Shown here piece by piece: positions 2,575 through 25,051 of a DNA stretch of 64,000 bases. The translations under genes and the position numbers were made by a program. Numbering within the stretch: position 1 is the stretch's first letter; every line of letters begins with the position of its first letter. The stretch comes from an uncultured Erysipelotrichaceae bacterium (lineage in GTDB: Bacteria > Bacillota_I > Bacilli_A > RFN20 > CAG-826), in contig CADCDA010000003.1 of the NCBI GenBank assembly GCA_902800025.1, positions 13,154 through 77,153 of the forward strand. The letters run 5' to 3'. Under the pieces are notes generated by a model. That model did not search any database. It was not told where the DNA came from and was given only the letters and a program-made list of their open reading frames with translations.

Positions 2575-3801
2575 TCAATTAAGGAAGTCGCCATCTTCTA
2601 AAACGCGGTAATCGCTGATTTCAGAAAGAGGTGTTTTCTTGCCATCTCTCACGAGGTAGCAGTTATCGTAGCTTTGAACTAATCTGAGGTAGCGTTTAAC
2701 AATGACATCGACATACTTTTCATCAAGCTCAATGAGATAAGCTTTTCTTTTAAGTTGCTCCGCTGCCATCATGGTGCTACCACTACCACCAAATGGATCA
2801 AGAACGATCTCTCCTTTTCTGGAGGAGTTTTCGATGGCTTTACAAATAAGCTCAACAGGCTTCATAGTTGGATGAAGATCATTGTGCTTAGGCTTATCGA
2901 AATCCCAGCGAGTGGTTTGGGTTCTGTCGTTTGTGAAATAATGAGCAGCTCCCTCTTTCCAGCCGTAAGCGATAGGCTCTACTTGAGCGTGATAGTCTTT
3001 TCTTCCTAAAGGAAAGGTATCCTTAACCCAGCAGATAATCTGAGAAAACTTGAATCCCGCTTCTTTGATTGCAAGAAGGAAATTAAGTTCTTCAACATCG
3101 CTATGGAAAATATAGAAAGGACAGCCAGGCTTACACGCATTGAACGCATTCACAAAAGCTGCCTTTAAGAAAGAGAGGAACGATTCGCTATCCATTTTGT
3201 CGTTTTGAATCTTTCCCGCAGTTCCTTCATAGTCCACGTTATATGGCGGATCCGTAAAGAGGAGATCTACTTCTTTTCCTTCAATGAGGATATCGAAGTT
3301 TTCCTTTTTGGTTGAGTCTCCACATAAAAGCTTATGACCGTTTAATAAAAAGAGATCGCCTTTTTGAGAATATGGGTTCTCAGGAAGCTCGTCTTTTATC
3401 TCATCTTGTTCAGGTTCTTTTTCAAACTCTAAGTCGAAACCGAATTGCTCCATGTCCATCTCGATGCTGTCGAGTTCTTCCTGAAGTTTAGAGTCGATCC
3501 AGGTTGCGATAGAACTTACTTGATTATCAGCAAGCCTAAAGGCTTTGATTTGGTCTTCATCTAAATCATCCGCAATGATACAAGGTACTTTGCTAATGCC
3601 TAATTTGTGACAAGCTTTAATTCTGGTGTGTCCGCAAACGATCACGTTATCCTTATCAATAACAATAGGGATTTTGAAACCGAATTCTCTGATGGAGTTT
3701 GCTACTGCTTCCACCGCTTCATCGTTGTTTCTTGGATTGTTTTCATAAGCTTTGAGCTCTGAGACATCCTTAATCACTATCTTCGGAATCTTCACTTCCA
3801 T
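2575..3801 (-). CDS. ParB-like nuclease domain fused to N4/N6 DNA methyltransferase (DPPY)
   Basis: N-terminal ParB/Srx-like motif (GHTRIKA). Methyltransferase catalytic motif FTDPPYNVDY and SAM-binding LDPFGGSGST. The likely true start is the ATG at 3801 with a GGAGG 10 nt upstream; the ORF-track start at 3855 is read-through. Confidence 0.8.
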   Translation of the reverse strand: MEVKIPKIVIKDVSELKAYENNPRNNDEAVEAVANSIREFGFKIPIVIDKDNVIVCGHTRIKACHKLGISKVPCIIADDLDEDQIKAFRLADNQVSSIATWIDSKLQEELDSIEMDMEQFGFDLEFEKEPEQDEIKDELPENPYSQKGDLFLLNGHKLLCGDSTKKENFDILIEGKEVDLLFTDPPYNVDYEGTAGKIQNDKMDSESFLSFLKAAFVNAFNACKPGCPFYIFHSDVEELNFLLAIKEAGFKFSQIICWVKDTFPLGRKDYHAQVEPIAYGWKEGAAHYFTNDRTQTTRWDFDKPKHNDLHPTMKPVELICKAIENSSRKGEIVLDPFGGSGSTMMAAEQLKRKAYLIELDEKYVDVIVKRYLRLVQSYDNCYLVRDGKKTPLSEISDYRVLEDGDFLN

Positions 3802-4270
3802 TGAGCCATACCTCCCCGCCTGCTTCAATTTTTTTCTCAGCAAGTTCGTAGTCAAAAGATCTCTCGGAATACTCTCTTCCGAAGTTGTGACTTAGAAGAT
3901 AAACGATGGCTTTGTAGTCGCCAGGAATATGCTTCTTGTACTTGTGAGCTTTTTTCTTTTTGTTTGCTTTATTGGAGACACCCTCTTCTAAGTACTGGTC
4001 TTCTTCAGTTACTTCGTAACCTATAGCCTTTTTGTACATAGCTCCAATGAGATTTCTTTTGAGATCAAGTCTGGCATCTTGCTTTAGCCTTTCGATCTCT
4101 GGGTGTTTTCTTTTTAACTTTATGAAAGTGGCTTCGTCCATCTGTAGGCGTTCACAGATTTCCTTTTGAGTCACTAGCTTTGAGAAGCAGTCGAATAAGA
4201 AATCTCGAACCTCTGGCCACTTTCCGGTTTCGTTCCACATTTCAAAAAGGTCTTTTCTGGTTTTGCCCAT
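3770..4270 (-). CDS. hypothetical phage DNA-binding protein (HTH-like)
   Basis: Strong RBS AGGAGGAAG 5 nt upstream of ATG 4270 (MGKTRKDLFEMW...). The upstream extension to 4375 in the ORF track is probably not translated. It has an HTH-like segment, ICERLQMDEATF. Confidence 0.5.
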   Translation of the reverse strand: MGKTRKDLFEMWNETGKWPEVRDFLFDCFSKLVTQKEICERLQMDEATFIKLKRKHPEIERLKQDARLDLKRNLIGAMYKKAIGYEVTEEDQYLEEGVSNKANKKKKAHKYKKHIPGDYKAIVYLLSHNFGREYSERSFDYELAEKKIEAGGEVWLNGSEDSEDSD

Positions 4271-6780: not shown

Positions 6781-8772
6781 GATCGCTGAGATCGCATAGG
6801 AGTCGCTGGCTGTGAAATCTTCTTTTCTTTTGCCTAAGCATTCAGTCCAGATTTCAATGTTGCTAACTTCGGTCCTTTTAACAGTCCCTTCTTTATGCAT
6901 TTCATGACCTATATCGCCTAAGAAAGAGATTCGAGCCCCTATGTCCATCTTCCACCAGTCTTCAGGAAGAAGAGTATTAAGGTATTCTCTAACAAGGCCC
7001 TCTCTTTCGTCGTGTTCCATTGCACCATTGGTAGCTTCTTCTGCAGCTTGAGATAATTCTTCGCTATCTAAGAAAAGGTTTTCTCCTTTAGCGGCAATCT
7101 CCACTACTTCGGACCAGATTTGATCTATTATATCGGCAGTAAGCTCCCATGCTTTTTTACTACCGGTACCTGGAGTTCTGACAGGCCAGAAACGTCTGTT
7201 TCCTGTAATGTCTCTAAGAAAGCCGTCCTCAGCATTTGTTGTGGCAAAGAAGATGCATTGTCTAGGGTGAGAATTAACTCTTCTTCCAAAGGAAGCTCTG
7301 TATTTGTCGTCCTGCCTAGAGATAAAAGCTTTAACTTTATCAATGTCGGCCTTTTTCATGCCAGCCAACTCACCGATTTCCAAGATCCAATAACCCTGAA
7401 GCTTTTCTGCTGCGGTTTTATCGTTCATATCAGAAATGTTCAAAGAGTCCGAATACCAATCCATCCCTAGCTTTGCAATAGCTGTTGATTTGCCCACCCC
7501 TTGAGGGCCATTAAGAACCAGGATATAGTCAAACTTAATGCCTGGATTAAATACTCTTTTGTAAGCAGCGACTAGAATTTTCCTAATCACTGCTCTAGTG
7601 TATGGAGTATCTTCGGCACCAAAATAGTCGACAAGGAAGGTTTCAACTCTTGGAGTTCCATCCCATTTAGGAAGTTTTTCAAAATAATTCCTTATTGGAT
7701 GGTAGCTTCTATCATCAACGACTTTTGTTACTGCGTTGTTATAATTCTCTTTAGAGAAATTGGTATAAGTTTTGTTAATGTAGCACACAAGTTGGGCATC
7801 ATCGGCATCTCTCCAGAATCTAGATTTCGCAGGCCATGCTACAGGACCTATTATTTCTATGTCTGTTGCGAGCTCGTTATAAACAATGTTTTTAAGAAGA
7901 GGATCATTGTTAAGAATTAATTCAAGGTTTTCAGTGCAATTCACTATTGCGTGAGTTTTGTCATTCTTGATAAATTCGTCCTGCCAATTCTTATATTGTT
8001 CAGGAGGGACATAACCTTTGGTTAAAATCAAACGATTATAAAAGCTGTTTAAACTCTTCCAAATCGTGTTTTTGATTTCTTCTTCTTCAAGAGGAGGTTC
8101 ACATACCTTTTCATTTCTTTCTAAAATGAGAGAGTAGGCTTTATCTGTGTAACCATATCTTTTAACGACTTTTGCACCAAAGCTAGAAAGATAACCATTT
8201 CTATGGCCTTCGCCAACCTTGAATGAAGCATCTTTTTCATCATCAATCCACTTCATGAAATCATCAACATTGAAAGTACCTTCTATAATCTCAACATTTG
8301 GATTTATAGTCCCATAAAAGAACCTAGCTGCATCCACTGCATTAGAGTCAAAAAACGGGAAATAACTATTAACCTTCAGTTTTAAGTTTTTATAAGTTTC
8401 AATATCTGCTATTTCTTTAATTGGAAAAAGGATGTGAAATTTTGGTCTTGCGGCTTTTCCGTTCTTCGGTTTGTTGTGGCTTTTTGAGTAATGAATCATC
8501 ATTGTGACATTAGGAAACCATTCCTTAACCATTTCTAGGTCAACCCAAGTTGATGGATCATCAGAATGATCGTTATCACAATCAAGCATAAGGCAGTCTG
8601 AAGTAATGAAGTTTTTATTGCTTCTGGTGTTCTTTTCATATTCGGCCCCAACGTAATCGTGAGAAACAACTTCGATCAAATCTTCACGAGTTTTAATCTC
8701 TTTGAAATTTGGATAAAGCTTGTTTTGTTGTTTGCCTACAACATTGGCATAAAAACACTTCATAACAACCAT
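6679..8772 (-). CDS. primase-polymerase / D5(P4)-type SF3 helicase (phage replicative primase-helicase)
   Basis: Walker A VLNGPQGVGKST sits at about aa 430, and a Walker B-like ILEIGEL follows. There is a large N-terminal primase-like domain. This architecture is typical of phage/plasmid primase C-terminal D5 NTPases. Confidence 0.75.
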   Translation of the reverse strand: MVVMKCFYANVVGKQQNKLYPNFKEIKTREDLIEVVSHDYVGAEYEKNTRSNKNFITSDCLMLDCDNDHSDDPSTWVDLEMVKEWFPNVTMMIHYSKSHNKPKNGKAARPKFHILFPIKEIADIETYKNLKLKVNSYFPFFDSNAVDAARFFYGTINPNVEIIEGTFNVDDFMKWIDDEKDASFKVGEGHRNGYLSSFGAKVVKRYGYTDKAYSLILERNEKVCEPPLEEEEIKNTIWKSLNSFYNRLILTKGYVPPEQYKNWQDEFIKNDKTHAIVNCTENLELILNNDPLLKNIVYNELATDIEIIGPVAWPAKSRFWRDADDAQLVCYINKTYTNFSKENYNNAVTKVVDDRSYHPIRNYFEKLPKWDGTPRVETFLVDYFGAEDTPYTRAVIRKILVAAYKRVFNPGIKFDYILVLNGPQGVGKSTAIAKLGMDWYSDSLNISDMNDKTAAEKLQGYWILEIGELAGMKKADIDKVKAFISRQDDKYRASFGRRVNSHPRQCIFFATTNAEDGFLRDITGNRRFWPVRTPGTGSKKAWELTADIIDQIWSEVVEIAAKGENLFLDSEELSQAAEEATNGAMEHDEREGLVREYLNTLLPEDWWKMDIGARISFLGDIGHEMHKEGTVKRTEVSNIEIWTECLGKRKEDFTASDSYAISAIMKSIEGWTRTSERKVVPGYGRQRVYKLQSKSGS

Positions 8773-14430: not shown

Positions 14431-14457
14431 AAAAAAAGCCAGATAAAATCTGGCTTT
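14431..14457 (-). terminator. rho-independent terminator of the defence-like operon
   Basis: AAAGCCAGAT-aaa-ATCTGGCTTT is a perfect 10-bp stem. It is followed on the minus strand by TTTTTTT, 20 nt downstream of the stop at 14478. Confidence 0.75.
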
Positions 14458-14477: not shown

Positions 14478-16244
14478 CTAATCTTGATAATTTTTCACGA
14501 AACCATAACGTCCGTTGTTAGGATCTTTCGTGAATTCTATTCTATTAACTCCTTCGTAATCTATGTCAGGAATATCGTTTTCGATTGCGATGATTTGCAT
14601 GTCCCTAGCGCACTCCTTCAAATAGGTGAATAAGGCTTTCTTTATTTGATCCGGAAGCTCTTCATTTCTCTTTTCTCTTAGTGACAAGATAGGAGAATCG
14701 ACTAGAAGCAATCCAGGCTTATAGTATCCTCTTTCTATCAAAACCTGCTGAAGAGCCAGTGCAAGTATCGTGTTGTAAAAACCCTTGAAGCCTTCGCCTT
14801 CATATTTCTTTTCGCTGCCGTTGATTTTAATATCAAAGTCACCATAGACGAAATCGATTTCATTTTCCCTGCCATTACATCTATCAATGCCGGCTTTCGC
14901 CTTAGTCACAAGGAAGCCAGAAAGAAGTGATTCAATGTATTCTCTAGGATTGTATTTCGTAATTTCGACCTTTATCTTCTCGACCTTCTTATGCTCTTCG
15001 ATTGCATCATTAAGGTTTTGGACGGCATTATTGTACTCAGCTTCGGAAACAACCGCGGTCTGATAGCTGTTAATCTTACTTTGAAGCTGCTTGACTAACG
15101 GCTTTAACTCATGATTGATCTCGGCATCAATAGCTTTCTTTTTGCCGACCAATTCGGAAACTTTCTCTTTTAGAGAAGCAAGCTCATCTTCGATAGCTTT
15201 TTTCGCTTCTTTCAAATCCTTTATTTGAGGTACAAGCTTCTTGAGCTCTGCTTCTGCAGCTTCTTCGCACGTCTCCTCTTCTTCTTTCTCAAGCTTGCCA
15301 TTGCAGAATGGACATCTTTGAGGCTCTTCGACATCCGAGGAATGAGCCTTTCCATCGACAATAAGCTCCATCCTTCTTAAATCCGATTCGTATTGGCTAA
15401 GGAGCGTGTTGTATTTTTCTATGAAGTTGTTAAGTTCAGCGATTCTATCGTTCAGGCCGATGATTTGGTTGGAGAGGCCTTTGCTCTCTTCGATCTTCTT
15501 GTTAAGCTCTTCATTCACTTCGTTGAGCCTTCTGATAAGCTCATCGATATCCTTTTTGAATTGCTCAGGCTCGCCAATCTTGAACCCTTCGTATGATTTC
15601 AACTTCTCAGTAAGCTTATCAACTTGCTCTTTCAGGTATTTTTCGAGCGCTTTCTTTCTGGCGGCTTTTTCAATAGGATTGCCTTCAGGATCTATGTGAT
15701 TGTCCCTGGACAAAAGGTAGATTAATGCCGATTTGAACGAAGTCGCGCTTGTGTTCTGCTCTGGGGCGAGGATACTTTCTTCTTTGCTTACATCGTTTTC
15801 TTTAATTACAAAAGTATGGGAGAACGTTCTGAAAGTTAGATTGTTCTTTTCCCAATTCTCGTTCTTAAGGATCTCCACTCTCTCGGTAAAGCCGATAAGC
15901 CTTAGCAATACATCGCTGTAGCTCATCCCATTTTCGTCTTTTTGCTTATATTCTCTGCATTCCAAACCTTGGATGTTCGTTTCTACAACCACAAGAGTCT
16001 TCTTGCCTATGGACCTAAGCAAAACAGCATATCCATCGTCGCATTCCACTCTCGCTTTGATCTCTTTTGCGTTGAAGTGCGGATTGACTTCTTTCTTTGC
16101 GCCGAAGATGAAATCGATGCAATCCAAAATGACGGACTTACCAGTATTAGATGGGCCATAAACAACGTTAAATCCATCGTCAAAGCTCACAGCAGACACT
16201 TCATCATTGTTCTGAATAAGCTGTATTTCTTTAATTCTTAACAT
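14478..16244 (-). CDS. SMC/Rad50-like ABC ATPase with central coiled coil and CxxC hook (LmuB / ABC-3C-ATPase-like)
   Basis: N-terminal MLRIKEIQLIQN...VVYGPSNTGKSVILDCIDFIFG is a Walker A. A long K/E/L-rich heptad region holds the CPFCNGK hook. The C-terminal part carries degenerate signature and Walker B sequences: EGEGFKGFYNTIL ... GLLLVDSPILSL ... IIAIEND. Confidence 0.7.
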   Translation of the reverse strand: MLRIKEIQLIQNNDEVSAVSFDDGFNVVYGPSNTGKSVILDCIDFIFGAKKEVNPHFNAKEIKARVECDDGYAVLLRSIGKKTLVVVETNIQGLECREYKQKDENGMSYSDVLLRLIGFTERVEILKNENWEKNNLTFRTFSHTFVIKENDVSKEESILAPEQNTSATSFKSALIYLLSRDNHIDPEGNPIEKAARKKALEKYLKEQVDKLTEKLKSYEGFKIGEPEQFKKDIDELIRRLNEVNEELNKKIEESKGLSNQIIGLNDRIAELNNFIEKYNTLLSQYESDLRRMELIVDGKAHSSDVEEPQRCPFCNGKLEKEEEETCEEAAEAELKKLVPQIKDLKEAKKAIEDELASLKEKVSELVGKKKAIDAEINHELKPLVKQLQSKINSYQTAVVSEAEYNNAVQNLNDAIEEHKKVEKIKVEITKYNPREYIESLLSGFLVTKAKAGIDRCNGRENEIDFVYGDFDIKINGSEKKYEGEGFKGFYNTILALALQQVLIERGYYKPGLLLVDSPILSLREKRNEELPDQIKKALFTYLKECARDMQIIAIENDIPDIDYEGVNRIEFTKDPNNGRYGFVKNYQD

Positions 16245-16686
16245 TGGTAAATCCTCCTCTTTTCACTAAGTCGGCCATGAATTTTCGAACGCTTTCATCT
16301 TTTTGAAGATCGTACTTCTCAAACGCTCCTTCTGCTGTCGACATATAATTTTCGCCGTACACATTGTCGAGCGAATCTATAAAGTTAATGCCATTATCAT
16401 TGATTTGGTACTTGAAACCATTATCTTGCGTCACATCGACAAGTCCTCTAGTAACCAATTCCTTAATCGCCATATCCACAAGTTCTTTTCTTGAGGCAAT
16501 TTCTCCAAACTTATAAGCACTATCGCCATGGAGATTGGACTCAGAAACCCCATAGTCCTTCCCATAACAGCAGATAAAGTCATAGCAGACAAATTGGTAT
16601 TTATCCATCTTGTCGAAAGGGCAATTGATGAGAAGCATCAATATCCTCAGTTGCATTTCAAATGGCGTGTTGAAAAATCTATTCAT
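16231..16686 (-). CDS. small hypothetical protein (candidate middle component / LmuC-like)
   Basis: The ATG at 16686 overlaps the upstream TAG (ATGAATAG), which indicates coupling. The 151-aa protein overlaps the ATPase start by 14 nt. No known motif. Confidence 0.5.
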   Translation of the reverse strand: MNRFFNTPFEMQLRILMLLINCPFDKMDKYQFVCYDFICCYGKDYGVSESNLHGDSAYKFGEIASRKELVDMAIKELVTRGLVDVTQDNGFKYQINDNGINFIDSLDNVYGENYMSTAEGAFEKYDLQKDESVRKFMADLVKRGGFTNVKN

Positions 16687-17695
16687 CCAGTTTCTCCTCC
16701 ACCCATTTGATTTTTTCATCATTAACTAGCATGTGGGTGATTCCTTTTCTCTCTTGGGTTTTGATCCATCCAGGGAGATGCATGAGAACGCTATTAAGAG
16801 GAATAAACGTCACCCTTTCCATTATTGCGTTCATTTTTTCTTTTCCAGAAGCATAGCTTTTGTTGCATGTGTCTTCTAGACCAGTGAAAATTTCGCTCTT
16901 TAGCTCATCGAAAAAATGATAGCCATAGGTTTCAGTGTCCCTAAGGCCAACTCTTATTGATTCGGCAGCGTAATAGTAGCCGCGTTGTTTGTTAAAATCA
17001 TCGAGACACGCGGTATCTGAAACAAGGTCGCTCTTCTTCACGAAGATAACATGTGCGGCCTCAGAGTAAACCTTTAGAAGCTCTTTGACGTAGTTTAATT
17101 CTTCGTCTTTAATATCATCTGGTGTCACGATGGCGACTGGGTGCTCCCTGCTATTGAGAATATCAATGATATCGTTCGTAGTGAGATTGTTATCGCCTAG
17201 TGATCTGTTTGCTTTTTTAGCCACAGGATTTGTTTTGTTGTCTGCGACAATCGCAAGCATGAAAACCTCTCTGAAGAAAAGCTTGTCTTCATTCCCTTTG
17301 TTGGCATTATAAAGCCCATTGACATAGCGCCTCTTTGCTATATCGATTTCTTCATCTGATTGCACCAATTCGTTTAATTCTTTGAAAATATATCGATTTT
17401 GCAGACTATTTGTCACGATTCTGTTCAAAAGCAACATTGAAATGCTTCCGTCTTTGTCGTGGCCGTTGAAGTATCTAGTCATTCCTGCCCTCAACAATGG
17501 ATAAACATCTTCGTTACCCTTATAAAGCGATCCGCACATTTTCGGAGTAAGACGGTATTGCTTATGTGATCTATCCCTGATATCCGCCTTTTTGATAGGA
17601 TCCTCCAATAAACCTTTCACCAAAAAAGTCATTTGCTTCTTTTTAGCAAATTTAGTGATTACCTTTAAAAATGATGAGAAGGTTAAGACGGCCAT
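16679..17695 (-). CDS. hypothetical 338-aa protein (candidate effector of the ATPase triad; no recognisable catalytic motif)
   Basis: The ATG at 17695 is 1 nt after the upstream TAA. No nuclease, SIR2, TIR, HEPN or Cap4 motif could be recognised by eye. Confidence 0.5.
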   Translation of the reverse strand: MAVLTFSSFLKVITKFAKKKQMTFLVKGLLEDPIKKADIRDRSHKQYRLTPKMCGSLYKGNEDVYPLLRAGMTRYFNGHDKDGSISMLLLNRIVTNSLQNRYIFKELNELVQSDEEIDIAKRRYVNGLYNANKGNEDKLFFREVFMLAIVADNKTNPVAKKANRSLGDNNLTTNDIIDILNSREHPVAIVTPDDIKDEELNYVKELLKVYSEAAHVIFVKKSDLVSDTACLDDFNKQRGYYYAAESIRVGLRDTETYGYHFFDELKSEIFTGLEDTCNKSYASGKEKMNAIMERVTFIPLNSVLMHLPGWIKTQERKGITHMLVNDEKIKWVEEKLDE

Positions 17696-17696
17696 A

Positions 17697-18392
17697 TTAT
17701 TCTTCGTTATCCTCTTTTTCCTTCTTGCGATAGACGTTTATTGGATTTCCGTCTTTATCTCTCCAGCAATTCCAGCCGTTGTCATTGTGACCTGAGATCA
17801 TTGCCGCGGCTTGGGAAACGGACGAGCACACAACATCTTCTTGTAAGATTGATCCTTTGAGCGGTAAGGACATCCTAAAAGGGACCCACGAGAATATTGA
17901 TGGAGTTTTTTCAGATAAAGGAGCACAAGTAGAATCTTTTTTAAGTGTTAGAACACCATTAGCAACGGCTAAAACACCAGAATAAGTATTTCTATCTGCC
18001 TTTGATTTAACTTGATAATAATACTCTCCATCAGGAAGCGATGAACTTTCTACCGCTTCTGTGGCTTGCTCAAACACCTCTTTCTTATCTTCTTCTGGAT
18101 ACACCACTCTTCCGTCGAGAGAAGAAAGGAGCTGACGAACCATATTGACGTCCAAAGAGAACATTTCGGTATCGCCTACTCTACTCTTGGAGAAAATTTC
18201 ATGAAGCAGAACTTCTTTTTCATCGTAGTTGTCAAGTTCTATTGCGAAGTTTCTTTTTAATCCGCTGACATTTCTATAACCATTACTTTCAAGGAATCTC
18301 ATTCTTTCCTCGAAATTGTCTGTTTTGGTTTTTCCTATTTTGACTAAGCCGCTAACAACGGTTGTCATCAAATAAATAATTCCTTTCGCCAT
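17697..18392 (-). CDS. T5orf172 (GIY-YIG superfamily) domain protein with C-terminal DUF4357-like region
   Basis: N-terminal GIIYLMTTVVSGLVKIGKTKTDNFEERMRFL matches the T5orf172 pattern (YxL..........KIGxT....R). A conserved E..LH (EVLLHEIF) follows. Confidence 0.55.
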   Translation of the reverse strand: MAKGIIYLMTTVVSGLVKIGKTKTDNFEERMRFLESNGYRNVSGLKRNFAIELDNYDEKEVLLHEIFSKSRVGDTEMFSLDVNMVRQLLSSLDGRVVYPEEDKKEVFEQATEAVESSSLPDGEYYYQVKSKADRNTYSGVLAVANGVLTLKKDSTCAPLSEKTPSIFSWVPFRMSLPLKGSILQEDVVCSSVSQAAAMISGHNDNGWNCWRDKDGNPINVYRKKEKEDNEE

Positions 18393-18406
18393 TCTCTATT
18401 CCTCCT

Positions 18407-21400
18407 TTATTTCAGCTTCCAATTAAAGAAGAAATCAGAAACAAACACATCTCTGTTGGCATACAAGATCTTGTTGATCTCTTTTTTGGAAACACCAAGA
18501 ATGTCTGCGATCTTTCCAGATTTCATTCCTTTGCCCGATTCTCTTAAAACTTTTACTATTTGATCTTTCAAAGAGAGAGGTTCTTCTTCAACTATCGCTT
18601 TTGGCTTAGCTACTACCTTTGGAGAGCTGAATTCAATAGCTTCATCTAGTAGCCTAGAGTCAAAACCAAATGCTTTGTATCCCTCAGAAACTCGTTCAAC
18701 ATATTCATCAGAAGGTCTTCCGAGTTTTCTATCCTCGTGCATAATGTAAACGAATGCTTCGATTTGGCTGAATGATCCATCATCAGCCTTAAGTTCAACT
18801 TTTATATCTTTTTTATAGTAGAAAGCAGGGTATCCTTCGTATCTATCTAGCGATGCTTCGTCATTTTCATTAACGACGAAAACACCAACAGGAACAGCAT
18901 ATCCGTTAGCCCTCTCGATTGTGAGGTAGTTTCCAGAGGAACTTCCCTTAAACATCAAGCGATAGTCATGGATAACTGATGTCCCTACTTTCCTTGCGGT
19001 TGGGCATCTGCTGGACATTTGTTCCAAATTGAGATTGCTGCCATAAGCCAAATAATAGCGAATTGGTTTCTGTGGTTTTTCTTCCACCACTAGTTCTGGT
19101 TCTTCTTCAGCAGGCTTTTCCACAGCATTTACAGGTTCCTCAACAGGTTTGCTTGAAACAAACGTTCTCGAAATTCTTGTTTGTTCTGGAGCTTCAGTAT
19201 GTGTTTCGCCTTCAATTCCAAATTCAAACCAATCAAAGCTGTTTCTATAGTTCTTTCTTACTTCTTCATTTGATAAATCTAAAGTAGATCCAATTGATTC
19301 GTTTTCAAAGAATTCTCTAATGAAGCCATTAAGGATATCTTCTTTGAAGATGTGATACTTGTTGAGAACCTCAAAGTCCTTCTTAGTGATACCGACAGCT
19401 TCTAAGAACCTATCCGGATCTGCATTCTTAAAGATTTCATCAAATGTCGTTTCTCTATAAACAGAAATATATAGGAATTCAAATAAACGAGCCAAGATGT
19501 GCTGCATGACGTTATCTGCATCTTGGATAGAAGTGTCATCGGCGTTTTTGATTACAGGTACCAAGGCTTTCTTTACTGCTTTTCTAAATGAATCACAGTA
19601 CCAGCGCTTGTAGATCTTTCCCCTATATTCCTGAGGAATGTTGTTTATGTCATTAAGATAGGCAACAACAAAGTTCTCTATCTTTTGCTTTGTTTCAGTT
19701 GTATATGTAATTTTTTCGCCGAAATGTTCTCTTACTTTGTCGACAAACTTAAGACCATCGGCTTTGCCGCATTGGAGCTTCTTAATAGGAGCGTTGACGC
19801 CTTGTTCATAGCCTTTCTTGAAGCCATTAATAAAGTATTTCTTATGGAGCTCATCTAAATCTGAAGGAATGTTTTCTTTGATGTGCTTTTCTTCGTTTGC
19901 ATCGTATTGTTCTTGGACTTCATTATCATCTAAATCAAGGTAAAGCTTACTATCAGCCATACCTAAGGCATAGCCTTTATCTCTTCCTTCTAAAGTAACC
20001 TTATCCTTAAAACTTGCATCATCTGGTTTAGGAGGGACGTCTCTATCCTTGGATTTTCCAAATTTTGCATGTGCAAAGACATGTTTAATAATGTCGCTAA
20101 CCTCCTCGTCATTGAGCATAGCGGCGATTGTATCTTCATCTTGGATCCAGGTCGTATTTTTGGTGTCCCTGATTTTCTTTGAAAGCGGCTTTCCTCTGCT
20201 ATCACCAAACTCAGCAAGCTTGAAGAATGTATCTTCGCCAATTGGGTGTTCCATGTCGCCATCCATGAAAATAGGTAAGTACTTAACGATCAGTCTAGCG
20301 ACTTGCATCTTCGTATATGCATTTTCCTTAGATGATTCTTCGGCATATTTTAAAAGAAGCGAAGCTGCTCTATCTATGTTGAAATCATATACATAACCAT
20401 CAGTTTTGAGGATCTTTCCGTTTTCAACCAATGGTGTCTGAATTCTAAATATCGCCTGGAAATATGATTCAGGGCTAGCTAAGTCCTTCAAAACGAAAAC
20501 ACTAAACCACTTCTTAACCGTGACACCTATAGTTAGCTTATTAACAGTGATTGAAATGCTGCCGATTTTACCGGTGTTTTCTCCAGCGGTCATGCTTTCA
20601 TTTAAAAATGTAAGGGCGTTTGTACCACTACCAACGTTCCTATCGGATAGATTGATGATCTGGTATCTAGAGAAATAATCATCTTCTTGAAGCAACTTTG
20701 CCATCGCATAGCATGAGTTGACAGTTGGCATGAGCCAAATCGTATGTTTGCTGTTAGGTGTAAGTTTTGGATTAGAATATGGGAAATTCTTTCCGTGCAT
20801 TGAAGCGCCTTTTATAATTTCAAGCCAAAGTTTAATCTCATCCTCATAAAGGAATTGGTATCCAAAGGCTTCGTCGTAATCTTTCCTCGTCTCAAAGAAT
20901 TTGTTCAAGGAAAAATAACTTCTTCCCAATACCTTATCATCCGAAACCACCGAATTGGCTAGCCCAGGGAACAAAGACTTCATGTCATAACCGAAGATGC
21001 TCATATCTGGGAATTGGGCATAATCTTTATTCGGGGTCCAATCGTCGTTCTCACTATTAGGATATTTCCTCTTTTGCTCATCAAAGTATGAATATGTGCT
21101 TGATGTTTTATCTGTAAATTCGCCTCTTGCTAAAGCTCTGAAAGGAGTTCCTGAGAGACAGATTGTTTTCTTTGTTTTGATTTCGAATTTCTTAACGACA
21201 TCCTTCGTGTCTTTGAGGTTTTTCTGATAGTCCTTATCAAGGTCCTCGAAAGTATCCTGAGTTCTAGCATTCCAGGCTCCAAAATGGTATTCATCGAGAA
21301 CCACCAAATCCCAATCAACATCTTGAAGCTTTTTGATTTTGTCTTTTGTTGTTTGGCTTTGGCTGTCTTTGCCTAAGTAGTTCTGCAACGATAAAAACAC

Positions 21401-22186
21401 AACGAAAGGCTCAGTCTTACCTTTTAAGGTAAAATCATTCCTTCTGATGTTGTCGTCGGTATAGTACTTATATACCTTATTTATATGAAGCAAGTCATCC
21501 TGCCATGATTTCTCAACTGCTGGGATGAATGTCAAAATTAAAATCTTATTGATATTGTTGTCTTCTGCAAACTTATAGGTCGTATAGCATTTTCCGAACC
21601 TCATTTTGCAGTTGAGAAGGAATCTTCCTCCTACTGGATGTTTGTCAAAATATGCAACTAAATCATCTATCGCTTTTTGCTGCTCAGCTCTAGGAGTATA
21701 AACAACTCTGCTGCTTCCGCTTTTTCTGATCTCGTTGAAAATAGAAATCAATTCATCAGGATGGATGTTGACAAACCACTCCTGCTCTTTTTCTTGAATT
21801 CCTGCGTACTTAGCTTTGATCTCGGCATGAACGCGATAATCTTTGAAGGATTCGCTATTGGTGTCTAAGCAGATGCCCCAATAGATGACTTCTCTGATGT
21901 CACCATAGCCTTTAGCAAATTGATCATCGGTCAAAGCTAATTCATGTTGTTGATCCTTAATTCTAGATTTGATTGCATGCCAAAAGGTCTCTCCCATTTT
22001 GCACTTGGTCATGCCTACCTTGACTCCATGATAAACGAAGTTAGGAAGTTGGTACATATAAATCAAGATCAAGTCTTGATCGGTTGTGTTTTTGTCATCC
22101 AGTTGGAAAAGAACGTCCTTTCCACTGAATCTGACTGTATCCTCAGAATTTATATTCTGGCCACGTTGGATTACTACTTCGCTCAT
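18407..22186 (-). CDS. multidomain 1259-aa protein: N-terminal T5orf172/GIY-YIG-like + SF2 (ResIII-type, DEYH) helicase + gamma-glutamylcyclotransferase (GGCT/AIG2)-like domain + C-terminal HTH
   Basis: N-terminal LILIYMYQLPNFVYHGVKVGMTK matches a T5orf172 core. Helicase motif I-like LNCKMRFGKCYT, motif II VVLDEYHF, motif III ICLSGTP and motif VI-like FQAIFRIQT. The GGCT-like segment is IRYYLAYGSNLNLEQM...IEAFVY. The C-terminal HTH is GKIADILGVSKKEINKIL. Confidence 0.7.
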   Translation of the reverse strand: MSEVVIQRGQNINSEDTVRFSGKDVLFQLDDKNTTDQDLILIYMYQLPNFVYHGVKVGMTKCKMGETFWHAIKSRIKDQQHELALTDDQFAKGYGDIREVIYWGICLDTNSESFKDYRVHAEIKAKYAGIQEKEQEWFVNIHPDELISIFNEIRKSGSSRVVYTPRAEQQKAIDDLVAYFDKHPVGGRFLLNCKMRFGKCYTTYKFAEDNNINKILILTFIPAVEKSWQDDLLHINKVYKYYTDDNIRRNDFTLKGKTEPFVVFLSLQNYLGKDSQSQTTKDKIKKLQDVDWDLVVLDEYHFGAWNARTQDTFEDLDKDYQKNLKDTKDVVKKFEIKTKKTICLSGTPFRALARGEFTDKTSSTYSYFDEQKRKYPNSENDDWTPNKDYAQFPDMSIFGYDMKSLFPGLANSVVSDDKVLGRSYFSLNKFFETRKDYDEAFGYQFLYEDEIKLWLEIIKGASMHGKNFPYSNPKLTPNSKHTIWLMPTVNSCYAMAKLLQEDDYFSRYQIINLSDRNVGSGTNALTFLNESMTAGENTGKIGSISITVNKLTIGVTVKKWFSVFVLKDLASPESYFQAIFRIQTPLVENGKILKTDGYVYDFNIDRAASLLLKYAEESSKENAYTKMQVARLIVKYLPIFMDGDMEHPIGEDTFFKLAEFGDSRGKPLSKKIRDTKNTTWIQDEDTIAAMLNDEEVSDIIKHVFAHAKFGKSKDRDVPPKPDDASFKDKVTLEGRDKGYALGMADSKLYLDLDDNEVQEQYDANEEKHIKENIPSDLDELHKKYFINGFKKGYEQGVNAPIKKLQCGKADGLKFVDKVREHFGEKITYTTETKQKIENFVVAYLNDINNIPQEYRGKIYKRWYCDSFRKAVKKALVPVIKNADDTSIQDADNVMQHILARLFEFLYISVYRETTFDEIFKNADPDRFLEAVGITKKDFEVLNKYHIFKEDILNGFIREFFENESIGSTLDLSNEEVRKNYRNSFDWFEFGIEGETHTEAPEQTRISRTFVSSKPVEEPVNAVEKPAEEEPELVVEEKPQKPIRYYLAYGSNLNLEQMSSRCPTARKVGTSVIHDYRLMFKGSSSGNYLTIERANGYAVPVGVFVVNENDEASLDRYEGYPAFYYKKDIKVELKADDGSFSQIEAFVYIMHEDRKLGRPSDEYVERVSEGYKAFGFDSRLLDEAIEFSSPKVVAKPKAIVEEEPLSLKDQIVKVLRESGKGMKSGKIADILGVSKKEINKILYANRDVFVSDFFFNWKLK

Positions 22187-22187
22187 A

Positions 22188-23855
22188 TCAAATCATCTCT
22201 CTAATTAAGGATTCGATATCCTTTATCTCAGTTTCGTCAAGGCCATACATTTCATAGAGTTCCTTGTCGCTCCACGATTTTTCATAAGTCAAATTCGGGA
22301 CAAATTTAAAATTATCTTTTGTAATATGCATAGAACTTAAGGTCAATAAAACTAAATATCTAGCAAATTTTGTCTTAATATACGATGCATAATTATTTGC
22401 CTCTTGTTCCGTGTCAAAAGCACCAAGTAATAAATAAGTAGCTGTAAACGCTTCCCCTGGTTTGTAAATTTTTATTTTTGTTGTGACATTAGACATACCA
22501 TCGCTAGCGTTATTAACACCTCCTCTATCAGGGTTTAACTGACCGATAGAAACTTTATATTTATCGATAATATCTGCTCCTTTTGGGAGGGAATCTTTTT
22601 TAATATAGAATTCGCCAGCACTAGCAATAACCTTTATTGAATTATCAAAAGGTTTTTCTTCACCTCTTGTATTGGTTGGAAGCCCAAATGGGGATATCGG
22701 ATAAACTAGCCTGTCAAGGAATACTTTTGTTTTAGCCCTTATTTTGTCAATAATTCCAATTCCGATATTGCTTCGTATAAATACATCGAAATCATTGAGT
22801 AGTCGATTCTTTGATGTTGTTTTTCCACCGACGCTACTGACGACTTGACATTTTCCTTGATGTTCAGAATCCCACAAGAAATAGCAAACGCCTCCAGCTA
22901 TATCAACGTTTGGAAAGCAGTCTCTGCTCTTTGGAAAATCAACCAATAAAGCCATTCTCTTATCATTCAGCATCTTCTCTCTGAATAAATCCATTCCCAT
23001 TCCGCCAGTAAACCATCTCGAAGGAATAATCATTGAAATATACTTCGGAGATAACGAGATAGCTTGTTCAACAAATTTGTGATAGATAGGCGTTGCCTGA
23101 ATTCCTGAGTCGTTTGTACTCAATTGATATGGTGGGTTGCCTATTATAATGTCGAATTTCATATTCTTATCTCCTTTAAAAAACCTATTTCTTAAATGTC
23201 TTTCTATAACCAAATGGTTAACATGCATAAATTCATAAGCATATTGTTCTCTTTGGTTCGCATCTAAATATTTTGAATCGTGTGCCACGCCACAATACTT
23301 GCATTTCTTTGTTTTCGGATCTATTTCATGGCTTGTATTTGGAGTTTTAATGTTCCCCTCGGTATCTGAAAACCATGTTCCGTTTCCTATGGCATATCCA
23401 TTAACAAAGTGACCGTCTGGAGCTTTTATTCCGTCACATGCTCTATTCGCTTCTGAACAATAATAAACGGTTCTTCTGGCTACATTAGCAGTGAACTTAG
23501 TTAGTCCAATAGAAAAGACCATATTTTGTAAAATGTGTTTTCTTCTTGTTTCTTTATCAGGAATAACATCTTTTAATCCTTCGTCAAGCCTAATAGCAAT
23601 TTCACGTTCAAAAATACCATTTTTTGTTGCAGGATTTAGCCACTTATAATTTGGATTATGCCAAACTTCATCAGGCAAAGAGTCAAGCATCATATCAGCA
23701 GTTTTTCTAGGTGTGAAAACTTCGTCATTGCCGACGTTTGTAATAGTTTCAAGAATGTCGAAGTGCTCTATATAATCGCTAGCTTCTTCTACAGCTGTAT
23801 TGTATTTCTTCTCAGCGCTTAGGCCTTCGCTGGTCTTTTTATCTTCATCTACCAT
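22188..23855 (-). CDS. gamma-class N6-adenine DNA methyltransferase (Eco57I/TaqI-like, NPPY) with Cys4 insertion
   Basis: Motif X DEVFTPRKTADMMLD, motif I-like WLNPATKNGIF and motif IV FDIIIGNPPYQ. It carries a CSEANRACDG...CKYCGVAHD zinc-ribbon-like insert and a long C-terminal putative target-recognition region. Confidence 0.8.
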   Translation of the reverse strand: MVDEDKKTSEGLSAEKKYNTAVEEASDYIEHFDILETITNVGNDEVFTPRKTADMMLDSLPDEVWHNPNYKWLNPATKNGIFEREIAIRLDEGLKDVIPDKETRRKHILQNMVFSIGLTKFTANVARRTVYYCSEANRACDGIKAPDGHFVNGYAIGNGTWFSDTEGNIKTPNTSHEIDPKTKKCKYCGVAHDSKYLDANQREQYAYEFMHVNHLVIERHLRNRFFKGDKNMKFDIIIGNPPYQLSTNDSGIQATPIYHKFVEQAISLSPKYISMIIPSRWFTGGMGMDLFREKMLNDKRMALLVDFPKSRDCFPNVDIAGGVCYFLWDSEHQGKCQVVSSVGGKTTSKNRLLNDFDVFIRSNIGIGIIDKIRAKTKVFLDRLVYPISPFGLPTNTRGEEKPFDNSIKVIASAGEFYIKKDSLPKGADIIDKYKVSIGQLNPDRGGVNNASDGMSNVTTKIKIYKPGEAFTATYLLLGAFDTEQEANNYASYIKTKFARYLVLLTLSSMHITKDNFKFVPNLTYEKSWSDKELYEMYGLDETEIKDIESLIREMI

Positions 23856-24490
23856 AGATCCACTCCTTCCTCGTGAACATTTATTTCATTTTCACTTATT
23901 TCCCATACCGGCATATCAAGCGGCTTCAAATTCCCTTTTTCTGCCTCAGGCATCTTATAGGCCACGTCTATTCCTAAAAGCAATCCTTCATCACTTTGAG
24001 TGTTTGACATTGCCCACATGAAGTTTCTCACAATAATGCATCTAAGAATATCGAAGTAGGAAGTATCGACTTGAATTTTGTTTTCAACAATAAAGTGCTT
24101 CACTAAAGTGAATATATTATTTCTTTGCTTTTCAATTAATTCTTCATCCATTTCTATAGAGTAGATAGTAGATAAAGCTCTGAGTGATTCAATTTCAAAA
24201 TTCTTAGTTATCTTCTCAAGACGCTTTTGGAGAATGTATGTAGTAAACGCACCATCACCAGAGGTTGGTTCGAGGACGGTTTTTGAAGAATCAAAAATAT
24301 CAGGACCTATGGCTTGACACATATCTTTGACAATGAAATCGGGAGTAAAAATTTGATAACCCTCAGTATCATTATGGCCCATAGAGGCAAGTTGAATAGT
24401 TTCAAAAGCTTCAATTAAGTCAAAAGCTTTAATCTGTTCTTTTTTAAATTCAGCCTTTATTTGATTAACATAATTTGAAAAATCAATCAT
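23849..24490 (-). CDS. truncated methyltransferase paralog (SAM-binding motifs X, I, II only; no NPPY)
   Basis: YQIFTPDFIVKDMCQAI plus VLEPTSGDGAF plus IYSIEMDEEL match the N-terminus of TaqI-like methyltransferases. Neither NPPY nor DPPY is present. It is translationally coupled on both sides. Confidence 0.5.
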   Translation of the reverse strand: MIDFSNYVNQIKAEFKKEQIKAFDLIEAFETIQLASMGHNDTEGYQIFTPDFIVKDMCQAIGPDIFDSSKTVLEPTSGDGAFTTYILQKRLEKITKNFEIESLRALSTIYSIEMDEELIEKQRNNIFTLVKHFIVENKIQVDTSYFDILRCIIVRNFMWAMSNTQSDEGLLLGIDVAYKMPEAEKGNLKPLDMPVWEISENEINVHEEGVDLW

Positions 24491-24678
24491 TCTTCCACCT
24501 CTATTCCATATTCTTTAAATAAAGGAGCGAGTTTCCTTTTAACTTTCATCGTTGGTTCACAATGACCATTCTCCCAGCGATTGATGCTTATAAAAGCAAC
24601 ACCCACTTTCTGGGCAAGTTCAGTCTGCGTTAAAAGCATTCTTTTCCTTAATAATTTTATTGCTTGAGCGTAATTCAT
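24487..24678 (-). CDS. Xre-family HTH regulator (controller/C-protein-like)
   Basis: A 63-aa protein: LTQTELAQKVGVAFISINRWENG is a classic Xre HTH. RBS GAGGTG lies 7 nt upstream. It is the first gene of the operon and overlaps the next gene by 4 nt. Confidence 0.8.
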   Translation of the reverse strand: MNYAQAIKLLRKRMLLTQTELAQKVGVAFISINRWENGHCEPTMKVKRKLAPLFKEYGIEVEE

Positions 24679-24699
24679 TATTGCACCTCAACGAATTTC

Positions 24700-24750
24700 A
24701 AAATTGATTATATCACTTTTATATCTTTTCCGCTATCCCTTATAAAGGGA
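24700..24750 (-). promoter_or_regulatory. operon promoter with extended -10 (TGATATAAT) and 6-3-6 inverted repeat TCCCTTATAAAGGGA at the -35 position
   Basis: On the minus strand, GTGATATAAT lies at 24717..24708. The palindrome at 24736..24750 sits exactly where the -35 and operator would be. Confidence 0.5.
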
Positions 24751-24797
24751 AAACTACAGATACTCCTGGAAAACAACCTAAATGCCCAATTCGCAAT

Positions 24798-24836
24798 CGT
24801 ATGTGATATAGGTAAAGCGTATGTGCGATAGGTAAG
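24798..24836. repeat. tandem direct repeat CGTATGTGATATAGGTAAAG / CGTATGTGCGATAGGTAAG
   Basis: Two adjacent ~20-bp units with 17/19 identity lie about 80 bp upstream of the operon promoter. They may be regulator-binding sites. Confidence 0.4.
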
Positions 24837-24974
24837 AAATCACCCGGCAAATGACCTCCAAAAATAAGGCAAATCAAATGAAAAGCGGTTAATAAATAAG
24901 AAAAAATGCCCATTTCTGAGCATTTTTGCGGTTTTTCGCATATTTCACTTTGTATCAAAGTATGTATACGATTA

Positions 24975-25051
<77 letters not shown>

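Follow-up and report, generated by a model that had tools for sequence, protein, structure and literature searches.

The window analysed here is a stretch of 64,000 nucleotides from an uncultured Erysipelotrichaceae bacterium (contig CADCDA010000003.1), and it carries, at the very end of a prophage, a tightly packed operon of eight genes on the minus strand (positions 14478-24678). In the order of transcription, these encode a small Xre-type helix-turn-helix (HTH) protein, half of a DNA methyltransferase (MTase), an Eco57I-family MTase, a large helicase protein, a PDC-S57 candidate and the LmuA, LmuC and LmuB proteins of a Lamassu system. The most probable explanation, to which we give a probability of roughly 0.78, is that the operon holds three autonomous and exchangeable defence modules: a restriction–modification (R–M)-like cassette (module 1, window ~18410-24795), PDC-S57 (module 2) and a short Lamassu, LmuACB (module 3). 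This explanation is built on the order of the genes, the domain content of their products, the separate phylogenetic distribution of the modules and their exchange as cassettes. The novelty of combining these eight genes lies only in the particular way that cassettes are stacked in a single prophage lineage.

The distribution of module 1 was followed through homologs of the helicase gene. A scan of one genome per species gave 80 loci, in Bacillota, Actinomycetota, Bacteroidota, Gemmatimonadota, Pseudomonadota and other phyla; 65 of these have enough upstream DNA for the neighbours to be read, and 53 have at least 4 kb downstream. An MTase homolog lies immediately upstream of the helicase gene in 61 of the 65, and a small open reading frame (ORF; 180-380 aa) precedes the MTase in at least 52 of 59. 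A Rhizobium plasmid also has the trio in its annotation, and the Pediococcus plasmid pRS5 encodes a single-chain T5orf172-helicase-Eco57I protein. LmuB occurs in one locus of the 53, L016, which comes from the same phage lineage as the window; the other 52 have the R–M-like trio without Lamassu. PDC-S57 is found at two of the 80. What follows the helicase homolog elsewhere is variable and includes Mokosh-like MkoA/MkoC with an AbiO/PDC-S14-like gene, PDC-S31 and HEC-05-like genes (L014 6952-11801; L021 13282-14256; L051 13297-14253; L036 2962-4776), and a PDC-S57 of another sub-model. With such a variety of defence candidates behind the helicase, the 3' side of the R–M-like module looks like a cargo slot.

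On the Lamassu side, 80 metagenome loci with relatives of LmuB, 28-35% identical to that of the window, were inspected over a neighbourhood of 10 kb. LmuA and LmuC of the type found in the window precede LmuB wherever upstream sequence is present, and none of the 80 has the helicase, the MTase or the half-MTase.

Exchange of a whole cassette is seen in a sister prophage, L094, with backbone proteins 97-100% identical to those of the window. Its operon consists of HTH, HsdM, HsdS and HsdR genes (a canonical Type I R–M system), then PDC-S57 (84% identical) and LmuA, LmuC and LmuB (65-69% identical). Nucleotide homology between the two prophages runs from position 8001 of the window to 18410, the base after the stop codon of the helicase gene, and is found again only at 24795-24950. 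The breakpoints therefore define the exchanged piece as exactly the promoter, HTH, half-MTase, MTase and helicase. PDC-S57 stays on the Lamassu side of the breakpoint and does not travel with the R–M cassette. A different phage, L095, has an HTH gene, a Type I R–M system and LmuACB, without PDC-S57, and in L096-L098 LmuACB is a separate operon beside a convergent Type I R–M system.

The earlier note on this DNA had seen in the eight genes a candidate for a single composite defence system, and had proposed as a check a search for co-occurrence of the Lamassu triad with the MTase-helicase pair. None was found beyond one phage lineage, which is essentially the pattern that it had taken to mean separate systems placed side by side. 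An integrated composite of all eight proteins, in which the R–M-like and the ABC-3C/Lamassu halves depend on each other, would suit the one promoter region, the one terminator, the overlapping or abutting genes and the eight-slot order kept in the diverged L016. It is nevertheless very unlikely indeed given the two distributions, the clean breakpoints at which L094 swaps the R–M-like cassette for a Type I system in an otherwise near-identical phage, the lack of PDC-S57 in L095 and the occurrence of Lamassu alone in L096-L098. The backbone proteins of L016 are 26-69% identical to those of the window (PD-(D/E)xK protein 54%, polymerase 69%), making it a diverged member of the same phage lineage; it keeps the eight slots, with a different PDC-S57 subfamily and with Lamassu proteins 35-56% identical. 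As L016 and the window stem from one lineage, they may simply have inherited the order, with no need for selection to keep a complex together, and the architecture they share is best explained by descent.

A looser form of coupling would leave the modules independent but layered: cuts made by the R–M system would give double-strand ends that LmuB–LmuC senses, and the order of R–M before Lamassu would have been selected for synergy. In the window, L016, L094 and L095, LmuACB is indeed directly preceded by an R–M system, albeit of differing type, and R–M is also adjacent to Lamassu in L096-L098, L100, L162 and L158. R–M systems are, however, the commonest defence genes, and neighbours of this kind would arise by chance in prophage hot spots. 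Only about 8 of the 80 more distant Lamassu loci have Type I R–M-like genes within 10 kb, and no more than two phage backbones, with their close relatives, account for the four cases in which R–M and Lamassu share an operon. We consider layering quite improbable. The same is true of a fuller version, in which an HTH-controlled R–M system of any type, an optional PDC-S57 and LmuACB, in one operon at a prophage end, form a selected two-layer design, restriction ends or a stalled motor trigger Lamassu, and the helical N-terminal domain of LmuA is a new non-enzymatic effector. If true, a layered design would convert failure or overload of R–M into abortive infection, and the repeated order of R–M before Lamassu, taken with the known sensing of DNA ends by Lamassu, leads to a testable hypothesis of synergy.

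Several points weigh against three autonomous modules. The Lamassu-side sample is only 28-35% identical to the LmuB of the window, with close relatives thinly sampled. The eight-slot order is long-lived, as its survival in a relative as diverged as L016 shows, and R–M stands ahead of LmuACB in four lineages. A shared promoter region and terminator, with no room between the genes, would also fit functional coupling. For module 1, the T5orf172 domain proposed for the helicase protein is moderately supported, its Pfam match being under threshold. Finally, DnmA–YeeB–YeeC of Bacillus subtilis, which has a similar domain set, showed neither restriction nor phage protection (PMC9973331).

The position of the operon follows from comparison of two host contexts. 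The same element, with proteins 100% identical, stands at tRNA-Arg(tct) in the window and in L001, and at tRNA-Thr(ggt) in L002. When L001 (tRNA 7136-7212) and L002 (7139-7212) are aligned, identity starts exactly at the 3' ACCA of the tRNA, so the operon is the first transcription unit within the prophage, at its tRNA-proximal end. The terminator-like hairpin that lies between the tRNA and the operon is identical in L002 and hence belongs to the element. What had been described as a defence island between a phage replication module and a tRNA is instead part of the prophage itself. The G+C content is ~0.40 from position 1 of the window to ~24,900 and ~0.33 beyond, and an integrase gene is absent between the tRNA and the operon.

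The P2 and P4 hot spots are prophage and satellite defence hot spots with exchangeable cassettes. The window resembles them in having a fixed position at the prophage end that is filled by different defence cargo in otherwise near-identical phages; it differs in that several systems are chained into one tightly packed, HTH-headed operon and in that, depending on the host, the element borders on the 3' end of one or the other of two tRNA genes. A megablast search of window 1-25000 against 50,697 phage records gave no match, and IMG/VR scans for close relatives of LmuB and of PDC-S57 gave none. An IMG/VR scan with the phage PD-(D/E)xK protein found only distant phages (40-46% identity), all without the cassette and so uninformative on the hot spot. 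Because the composite reading does not stand, the value of the case is mainly corrective. It is a clean and well-documented prophage defence hot spot in which whole systems are swapped as cassettes within one operon.

The eight consecutive minus-strand ORFs are all present where the earlier note had placed them (Table 1), and its operon layout is borne out. In the order of transcription, the first two gene pairs overlap by 4 and 7 nt, the next three are separated by 1, 14 and 1 nt, and the last two overlap by 8 and 14 nt, the 8-nt overlap of LmuA with LmuC being counted from the 151-aa LmuC start at 16686. All seven had been called overlaps; the sizes were right, but only four of the seven gene pairs overlap and three are separated by spacers. 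None of the gaps is big enough for a terminator, and the sole minus-strand terminator-like match inside the operon is a weak 6-bp stem within the HTH gene. A purine-rich, Shine-Dalgarno-like run is clear upstream of seven of the eight genes and weak for the helicase gene. The terminator had been placed at 14,431-14,457, and both the scan and direct reading find a hairpin there, followed by a T-run and starting 20 nt past the last stop codon of the operon. For the promoter, which had been put at about 24,700, an extended -10 element is visible; because the two-hexamer scan does not have it among its listed matches, it is treated here as putative.

Promoter-like matches inside the operon number 25 against 32.3 expected from shuffled sequence, and terminator-like matches are not commoner there than in shuffled sequence. 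With no excess over the shuffled sequence, the consensus scan decides nothing on internal promoters that might split the operon. The eight genes probably form one transcription unit and would then be co-transcribed. The identical eight-gene block recurs on at least 21 independent metagenome contigs and is therefore not an assembly artefact. The G+C content at third codon positions (GC3) changes in steps along the operon, from 0.29-0.31 in genes 1-3 to 0.39 in gene 4, 0.36 in gene 5 and 0.43-0.47 in the Lamassu genes 6-8, compared with 0.34-0.36 in the phage backbone and 0.25-0.27 in host genes. Such steps fit a mosaic origin of the operon. The tandem direct repeat upstream of the putative promoter falls within 24795-24950, the short stretch over which homology to L094 persists, and could be an operator or a recombinase arm-type site.

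Table 1. Features of the operon and its surroundings (positions in the window; genes numbered in the order of transcription)
Feature	Position	Strand	Basis
tRNA-Arg(tct) of the host, 3' ACCA marking the prophage end; context, outside the operon	24975..25051	-	ARAGORN
Hairpin resembling a terminator, downstream of the tRNA and just within the element	24902..24927	-	scan; inverted repeat I2
Tandem direct repeat with 20-bp units (85% identical), upstream of the putative promoter	24795..24834	.	repeat family D1
Putative extended -10 promoter element (TGATATAAT; TG-A-TATAAT)	24707..24715	-	read directly from the sequence
Gene 1, 63-aa Xre-type HTH	24487..24678	-	Pfam HTH_3 2.9e-9
Gene 2, 213-aa half-MTase	23849..24490	-	motif X (IFTPDF, aa 47), S-adenosylmethionine (SAM) motif I (EPTSGDGAF, aa 74)
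Gene 3, 555-aa gamma-class N6-adenine DNA MTase, Eco57I family	22188..23855	-	Pfam Eco57I 5.9e-30
Gene 4, 1259-aa multidomain protein	18407..22186	-	Pfam, PADLOC, hhalign, fold search
GGACT (gamma-glutamyl cyclotransferase-like) insert, gene 4 aa 1038-1190	18617..19075	-	Pfam GGACT 3.4e-11; phrog_2520 4.8e-47
Gene 5, 231-aa PDC-S57 candidate	17697..18392	-	PADLOC PDLC05040 8.7e-89, full length
Gene 6, LmuA, 338 aa	16679..17695	-	PADLOC LmuA 2.8e-45, full length; ABC-3C CTD6 aa 199-331 (Pfam 3.4e-34)
Gene 7, LmuC, 151 aa from the ATG at 16686, middle component MC2	16231..16686	-	Pfam MC2 8.6e-36; PADLOC LmuC 4.2e-43
Gene 8, LmuB, 588 aa, short SMC/Rad50-like ABC ATPase	14478..16244	-	PADLOC LmuB 6.8e-149
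Intrinsic terminator ending the operon	14435..14457	-	G+C-rich hairpin and T-run; scan and direct reading

Much of what had been read from the translations alone has held. The HTH protein, the adenine MTase with its NPPY motif, the GGCT-like domain of the 1259-aa protein, the standalone T5orf172 protein and the Lamassu type II or ABC-3C order and sizes of the last three genes are all recovered by the profile matches, and an R–M-like first half is supported by the Eco57I MTase and the SF2 motor protein. The 338-aa protein does lack a recognisable effector motif. Support for a T5orf172 domain at the N-terminus of the 1259-aa protein is moderate, with Pfam on one side and hhalign on the other. 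The profile searches suggested by the earlier note place genes 5-8 in PDC-S57 and Lamassu; genes 1-4 are R–M-like without belonging to a formal type.

Genes homologous to the HTH gene stand first in the R–M-like operons of at least nine other genomes and in the Type I R–M operons of L094 and L095. The HTH protein is likely the controller of the R–M-like cassette, and it would time expression in the manner of a C protein. Its match to the PADLOC Control_protein model is weak (7.7e-3), and a repeat search found no palindromic C-box operator but the tandem direct repeat instead.

The half-MTase encoded by gene 2 lacks the NPPY catalytic motif. Its motifs X and I (aa 47 and 74) are in register with those of gene 3 (aa 46 and 74), it matches the N-terminal regions of MTase models weakly, and a homolog in Rhizobium is named ‘N-6 DNA methylase’ by PGAP. 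Two forms of the first gene of the trio exist, a shorter of 213-236 aa with motifs X and I and a longer of ~330 aa (L021 7302-8294, L051 7248-8240 and others) with EVFTP, an EVCCGEAPYL stretch and a C-terminal Cys/His cluster but no Pfam match. The MTase encoded by gene 3 has motif X at aa 46, a motif I-like (TaqI-like) NPATKNGIF at aa 74, CxxC at aa 185 and NPPY at aa 240, followed by a C-terminal half that is target-recognition-like. In PADLOC it matches MTase_II (2.1e-45) and REase_MTase_IIG (3.6e-38); a PDB profile search gave no solved relative by sequence.

Gene 4 likely encodes the motor-nuclease subunit of the cassette. A T5orf172/GIY-YIG-like domain is proposed at ~aa 40-155, followed by an SF2 ATPase at ~aa 165-600 (ResIII 1.9e-5, above the Pfam cut-off) and a conserved helical region at ~aa 600-1000. 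The ATPase motifs GKC (198), DEYH (298) and SGTP (345) are all three invariant in the family. The T5orf172 match has a Pfam E-value of 0.051, below cut-off, yet it covers positions 3-100 of the 101 in the profile, and comparison of the N-terminus with the PDC-S57 family by hhalign gives a probability of 87% (E=3.8e-6). The fused plasmid homolog matches T5orf172 at E=0.0036, and homologs of gene 4 are named ‘GIY-YIG nuclease family protein’ by PGAP. The family comprises more than 4150 protein clusters at E<=1e-5, and its residues are strongly conserved over the full length of the protein, among them the nuclease-like Y43, Y45, R75 and E136, the Walker A lysine K199 and DEYH. The putative helicase motif VI is QAIFRIQ, in which, by our reading, the second arginine of the usual motif is missing. 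When a 991-aa homolog was modelled (mean pLDDT 66), the fold matched those of SF2, Snf2, XPB and RadD motors, with the restriction enzymes SauUSI and LlaBIII among them.

The C-terminal part of gene 4 has two further elements. The GGACT insert keeps YGSNL (aa 1048) and LDRYEG (aa 1113) and shares 55-61% identity with genes that gut phages carry as standalone ‘gamma-glutamyl cyclotransferase’; most homologs of gene 4 (~1100 aa) do not have it. We know of no role for the GGACT fold in an R–M-like motor protein, and a literature search on GGCT in defence returned nothing relevant. The protein ends in a winged helix (aa 1205-1259, window 18410-18574) that is a borderline match to Z-alpha (Pfam z-alpha 4.1e-4, just under cut-off) and that is retained at the end of nearly all members of the family. 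A PDB profile search with the family gave borderline Z-alpha matches only, to ZBP1 and ADAR at E ~0.07-0.7, and no solved relative.

Taken together, the domains suggest that module 1 works like an ATP-dependent R–M enzyme, yet it fits no formal type. The Eco57I-family enzyme would methylate adenine at N6 in its recognition sites in host and prophage DNA, with the 213-aa SAM-motif half-MTase as an accessory subunit. Once recruited to unmodified sites, the 1259-aa protein would translocate by ATP hydrolysis and cut unmethylated incoming DNA with its GIY-YIG-like domain, an action resembling that of the Type ISP, Type I and Type III enzymes. The Type ISP/IIG enzymes (LlaGI, LlaBIII; PDLC03626) combine a nuclease, an SF2 motor and a gamma-class adenine MTase with a recognition domain, a set that module 1 would share, and the fused ‘Type IIG’ profile PDLC03626 of PADLOC matches both gene 4 (profile 169-593) and gene 3 (profile 1001-1359). 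In module 1, however, the activities are split over three genes and a controller (the genes being separate in 61 of 65 loci), although fused relatives exist. Furthermore, its candidate nuclease domain is T5orf172/GIY-YIG-like rather than Mrr/PD-(D/E)xK, it has the additional half-MTase, the subclade of the window has the GGACT insert and the Z-alpha-like winged helix, and the PDB profile search shows no sequence-level match to any solved R–M enzyme. Unlike Type I systems, module 1 is without HsdS. MADS, DISARM, BREX, Hma and Mokosh were considered for module 1 and rejected, as PADLOC gives only weak, domain-level matches (mad1 8.8e-3, mad2 2.5e-5) or none.

The DnmA–YeeB–YeeC cluster of B. subtilis and Vibrio crassostreae has the same set of domains: its operon, which lies on acquired DNA, encodes an N6-adenine MTase, an SF2 helicase and a T5orf172 protein (PMC9973331). 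DnmA, however, is MmeI-like, whereas the MTase of the window matches Eco57I and has no MmeI Pfam domain; the window also fuses T5orf172 with the helicase and adds the half-MTase, YeeB and YeeC being compared by description only. The parallel raises the alternative that module 1 does not restrict at all and either serves in epigenetic or self-protective methylation or is a relic (the view put forward for DnmA–YeeB–YeeC), or is a phage tool for modifying its own DNA during replication. The negative result in B. subtilis speaks for it, as do the position of the cassette directly upstream of, and co-oriented with, the phage replication genes and the helicase motif VI without its second arginine. 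We nevertheless think it unlikely. The family is very widespread, and the strong conservation of nuclease-like and motor residues over the whole protein argues for a maintained activity. The fused single-chain plasmid versions look like classical Type IIG/ISP-style enzymes, variable defence candidates follow the cassette in other genomes, and the prophage already has a separate ParB-fused MTase. Moreover, sensitivity to phage is affected by the counterparts of DnmA and YeeB in Vibrio (PMC9973331).

An R–M-like module 1 stays the favoured interpretation, and its family may deserve further study. No experimentally characterised member of the T5orf172-helicase/Eco57I/half-MTase family was found in the literature. 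The family is spread over more than 4000 protein clusters, many phyla and plasmids, and a tractable member would define the rules of recognition and cleavage. This family, with its GGACT-bearing subclade, and the catalytically silent N-terminal domain of LmuA are the under-explored parts of the operon.

Gene 5 aligns with the PDC-S57 model PDLC05040 over residues 1-225 (positions 1-228 of 229). Its N-terminal domain matches MUG113, which is related to T5orf172, at 2.7e-4, and its C-terminal domain matches DUF4357 (8.9e-13) and RAMA (1.2e-4); precomputed hits give a weak T5orf172. T5orf172 domains are reported to be active nucleases in characterised phage and satellite proteins (PMC8263062, PMC10448857). 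The DUF4357/RAMA domain was named for its association with adenine-methylase R–M systems and is predicted to discriminate adenine methylation (PMC4738411). PDC-S57 might therefore pair a nuclease-like domain with a DUF4357/RAMA-like domain that would read the state of adenine methylation. A literature search on ‘PDC-S57’ returned no paper.

These domains bear on whether PDC-S57 is a module of its own or an accessory of the R–M operon that precedes it, acting there as a nuclease that reads the methylation state. PDC-S57-type genes are the last of three kinds of adenine-MTase R–M operon: they come after the helicase of the trio in the window, L016 (13337-14008) and L030 (13290-13982), after the HsdR of a Type I system in L094 (6649-7344), and after an EcoRI-type MTase with a GmrSD_N/HNH pair in L158 (7405-8073). 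This trailing position, here and at four other loci, suggests a role that is R–M-associated rather than stand-alone, as does the name given to its C-terminal domain. Against an accessory role, PDC-S57 is present at only two of 80 helicase loci and stays on the Lamassu side of the L094 breakpoint, and the sample is small and was gathered for another question. The PDC-S label of PADLOC, moreover, presumably denotes single-gene candidates. We regard an accessory role as a tentative possibility, with the odds against it, and retain PDC-S57 as a separate module. The slot-5 gene of L016 was tried as a homolog of that of the window and rejected, as BLASTP shows no similarity and it belongs to another PDC-S57 sub-model.

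The last three genes form a triad that belongs, on every structural criterion examined except the class of effector, to short type II Lamassu, which is ABC-3C under another name; the two are one thing here. Short LmuB proteins are defined by a length of ~600 aa, a Walker A motif, a Walker B motif of the form hhhhD[Q/S/T/E] and a coiled coil, the zinc hook being optional (PMC12663957). Gene 8 has these properties, with Walker A GPSNTGKS at aa 30, Walker B LLLVDS at aa 512 and a single zinc hook CPFC at aa 311, and its residues 4-587 align with positions 6-604 of the 605 in the PADLOC model. Gene 7 lies between LmuA and LmuB, and gene 6 has the docking C-terminal domain; the fold of LmuA matches that of solved LmuA.

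With Vibrio cholerae DdmABC and Salmonella LmuACB (PDB 9nxx, 9ny5, 9hqx, 9hr5) the triad shares the A-C-B order, the small LmuC, the ~600-aa LmuB with Walker A, an hhhhD[S] Walker B and a CxxC zinc hook (PMC12663957), and full-length PADLOC matches. With ABC-3C it shares the CTD6 (PF20282) effector, the MC2 (PF20288) middle component and the coiled-coil ABC ATPase, and its architecture is no different. Only the N-terminal domain of LmuA departs from the solved Lamassu systems, since it belongs to none of the recognised kinds of effector, such as Cap4, Mrr, Sir2, protease, lipase or HNH.

That domain (aa 1-190) is all-helical in an AlphaFold2 model. It has no Pfam match at E<=0.1 and no specific fold match, and among 58 non-identical relatives it has no conserved polar residues and essentially no conserved residues at all, whereas the C-terminal domain has many. 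An exhaustive phmmer search of 1.84 billion representative proteins gave four matches, of which three are genuine and LmuA-sized; the fourth, a 1249-aa tandem-repeat protein, was discarded as spurious. LmuA thus has no N-terminal effector that can be assigned to an enzymatic class. It may still count as Lamassu, since unassigned and ‘effector-less’ clades have been described (PMC12663957), and the LmuA of the window may correspond to one of them. A domain without a catalytic signature bears on how Lamassu kills when it lacks an obvious enzyme.

The way in which the triad would act can be taken from the sequestration and release described for solved systems (PMC12663957). LmuB2–LmuC would hold monomeric LmuA through its CTD6 C-terminal domain, until aberrant ends or replication structures in phage DNA are sensed and ATP is hydrolysed, upon which LmuA would be released. 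The freed LmuA would then oligomerise and abort the infection through its helical N-terminal domain. The start of LmuC varies among gene callers on different contigs, being placed to give 135 or 151 aa, and the longest ORF reaches 16722 (163 aa). Of these starts, the one for 151 aa is preceded by the best purine run and produces the 8-nt overlap with LmuA.

The left flank of the operon consists of phage genes, encoding a PD-(D/E)xK/DUF2800 protein, an Enc34-type single-stranded DNA-binding protein, a family A DNA polymerase, a VapE-type primase-helicase, a SNF2 helicase, a late regulator, a small-terminase-like protein, a ParB-fused DNA MTase and an HNH endonuclease. On the right, the tRNA-Arg(tct) is followed by host genes, e.g. 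uvrC and mutS2. The ParB-fused enzyme (window 2575-3855; phrog_498, 2.2e-145) gives the prophage a second DNA MTase, and its ParB-like N-terminal domain is typical of phage self-protection methylases.

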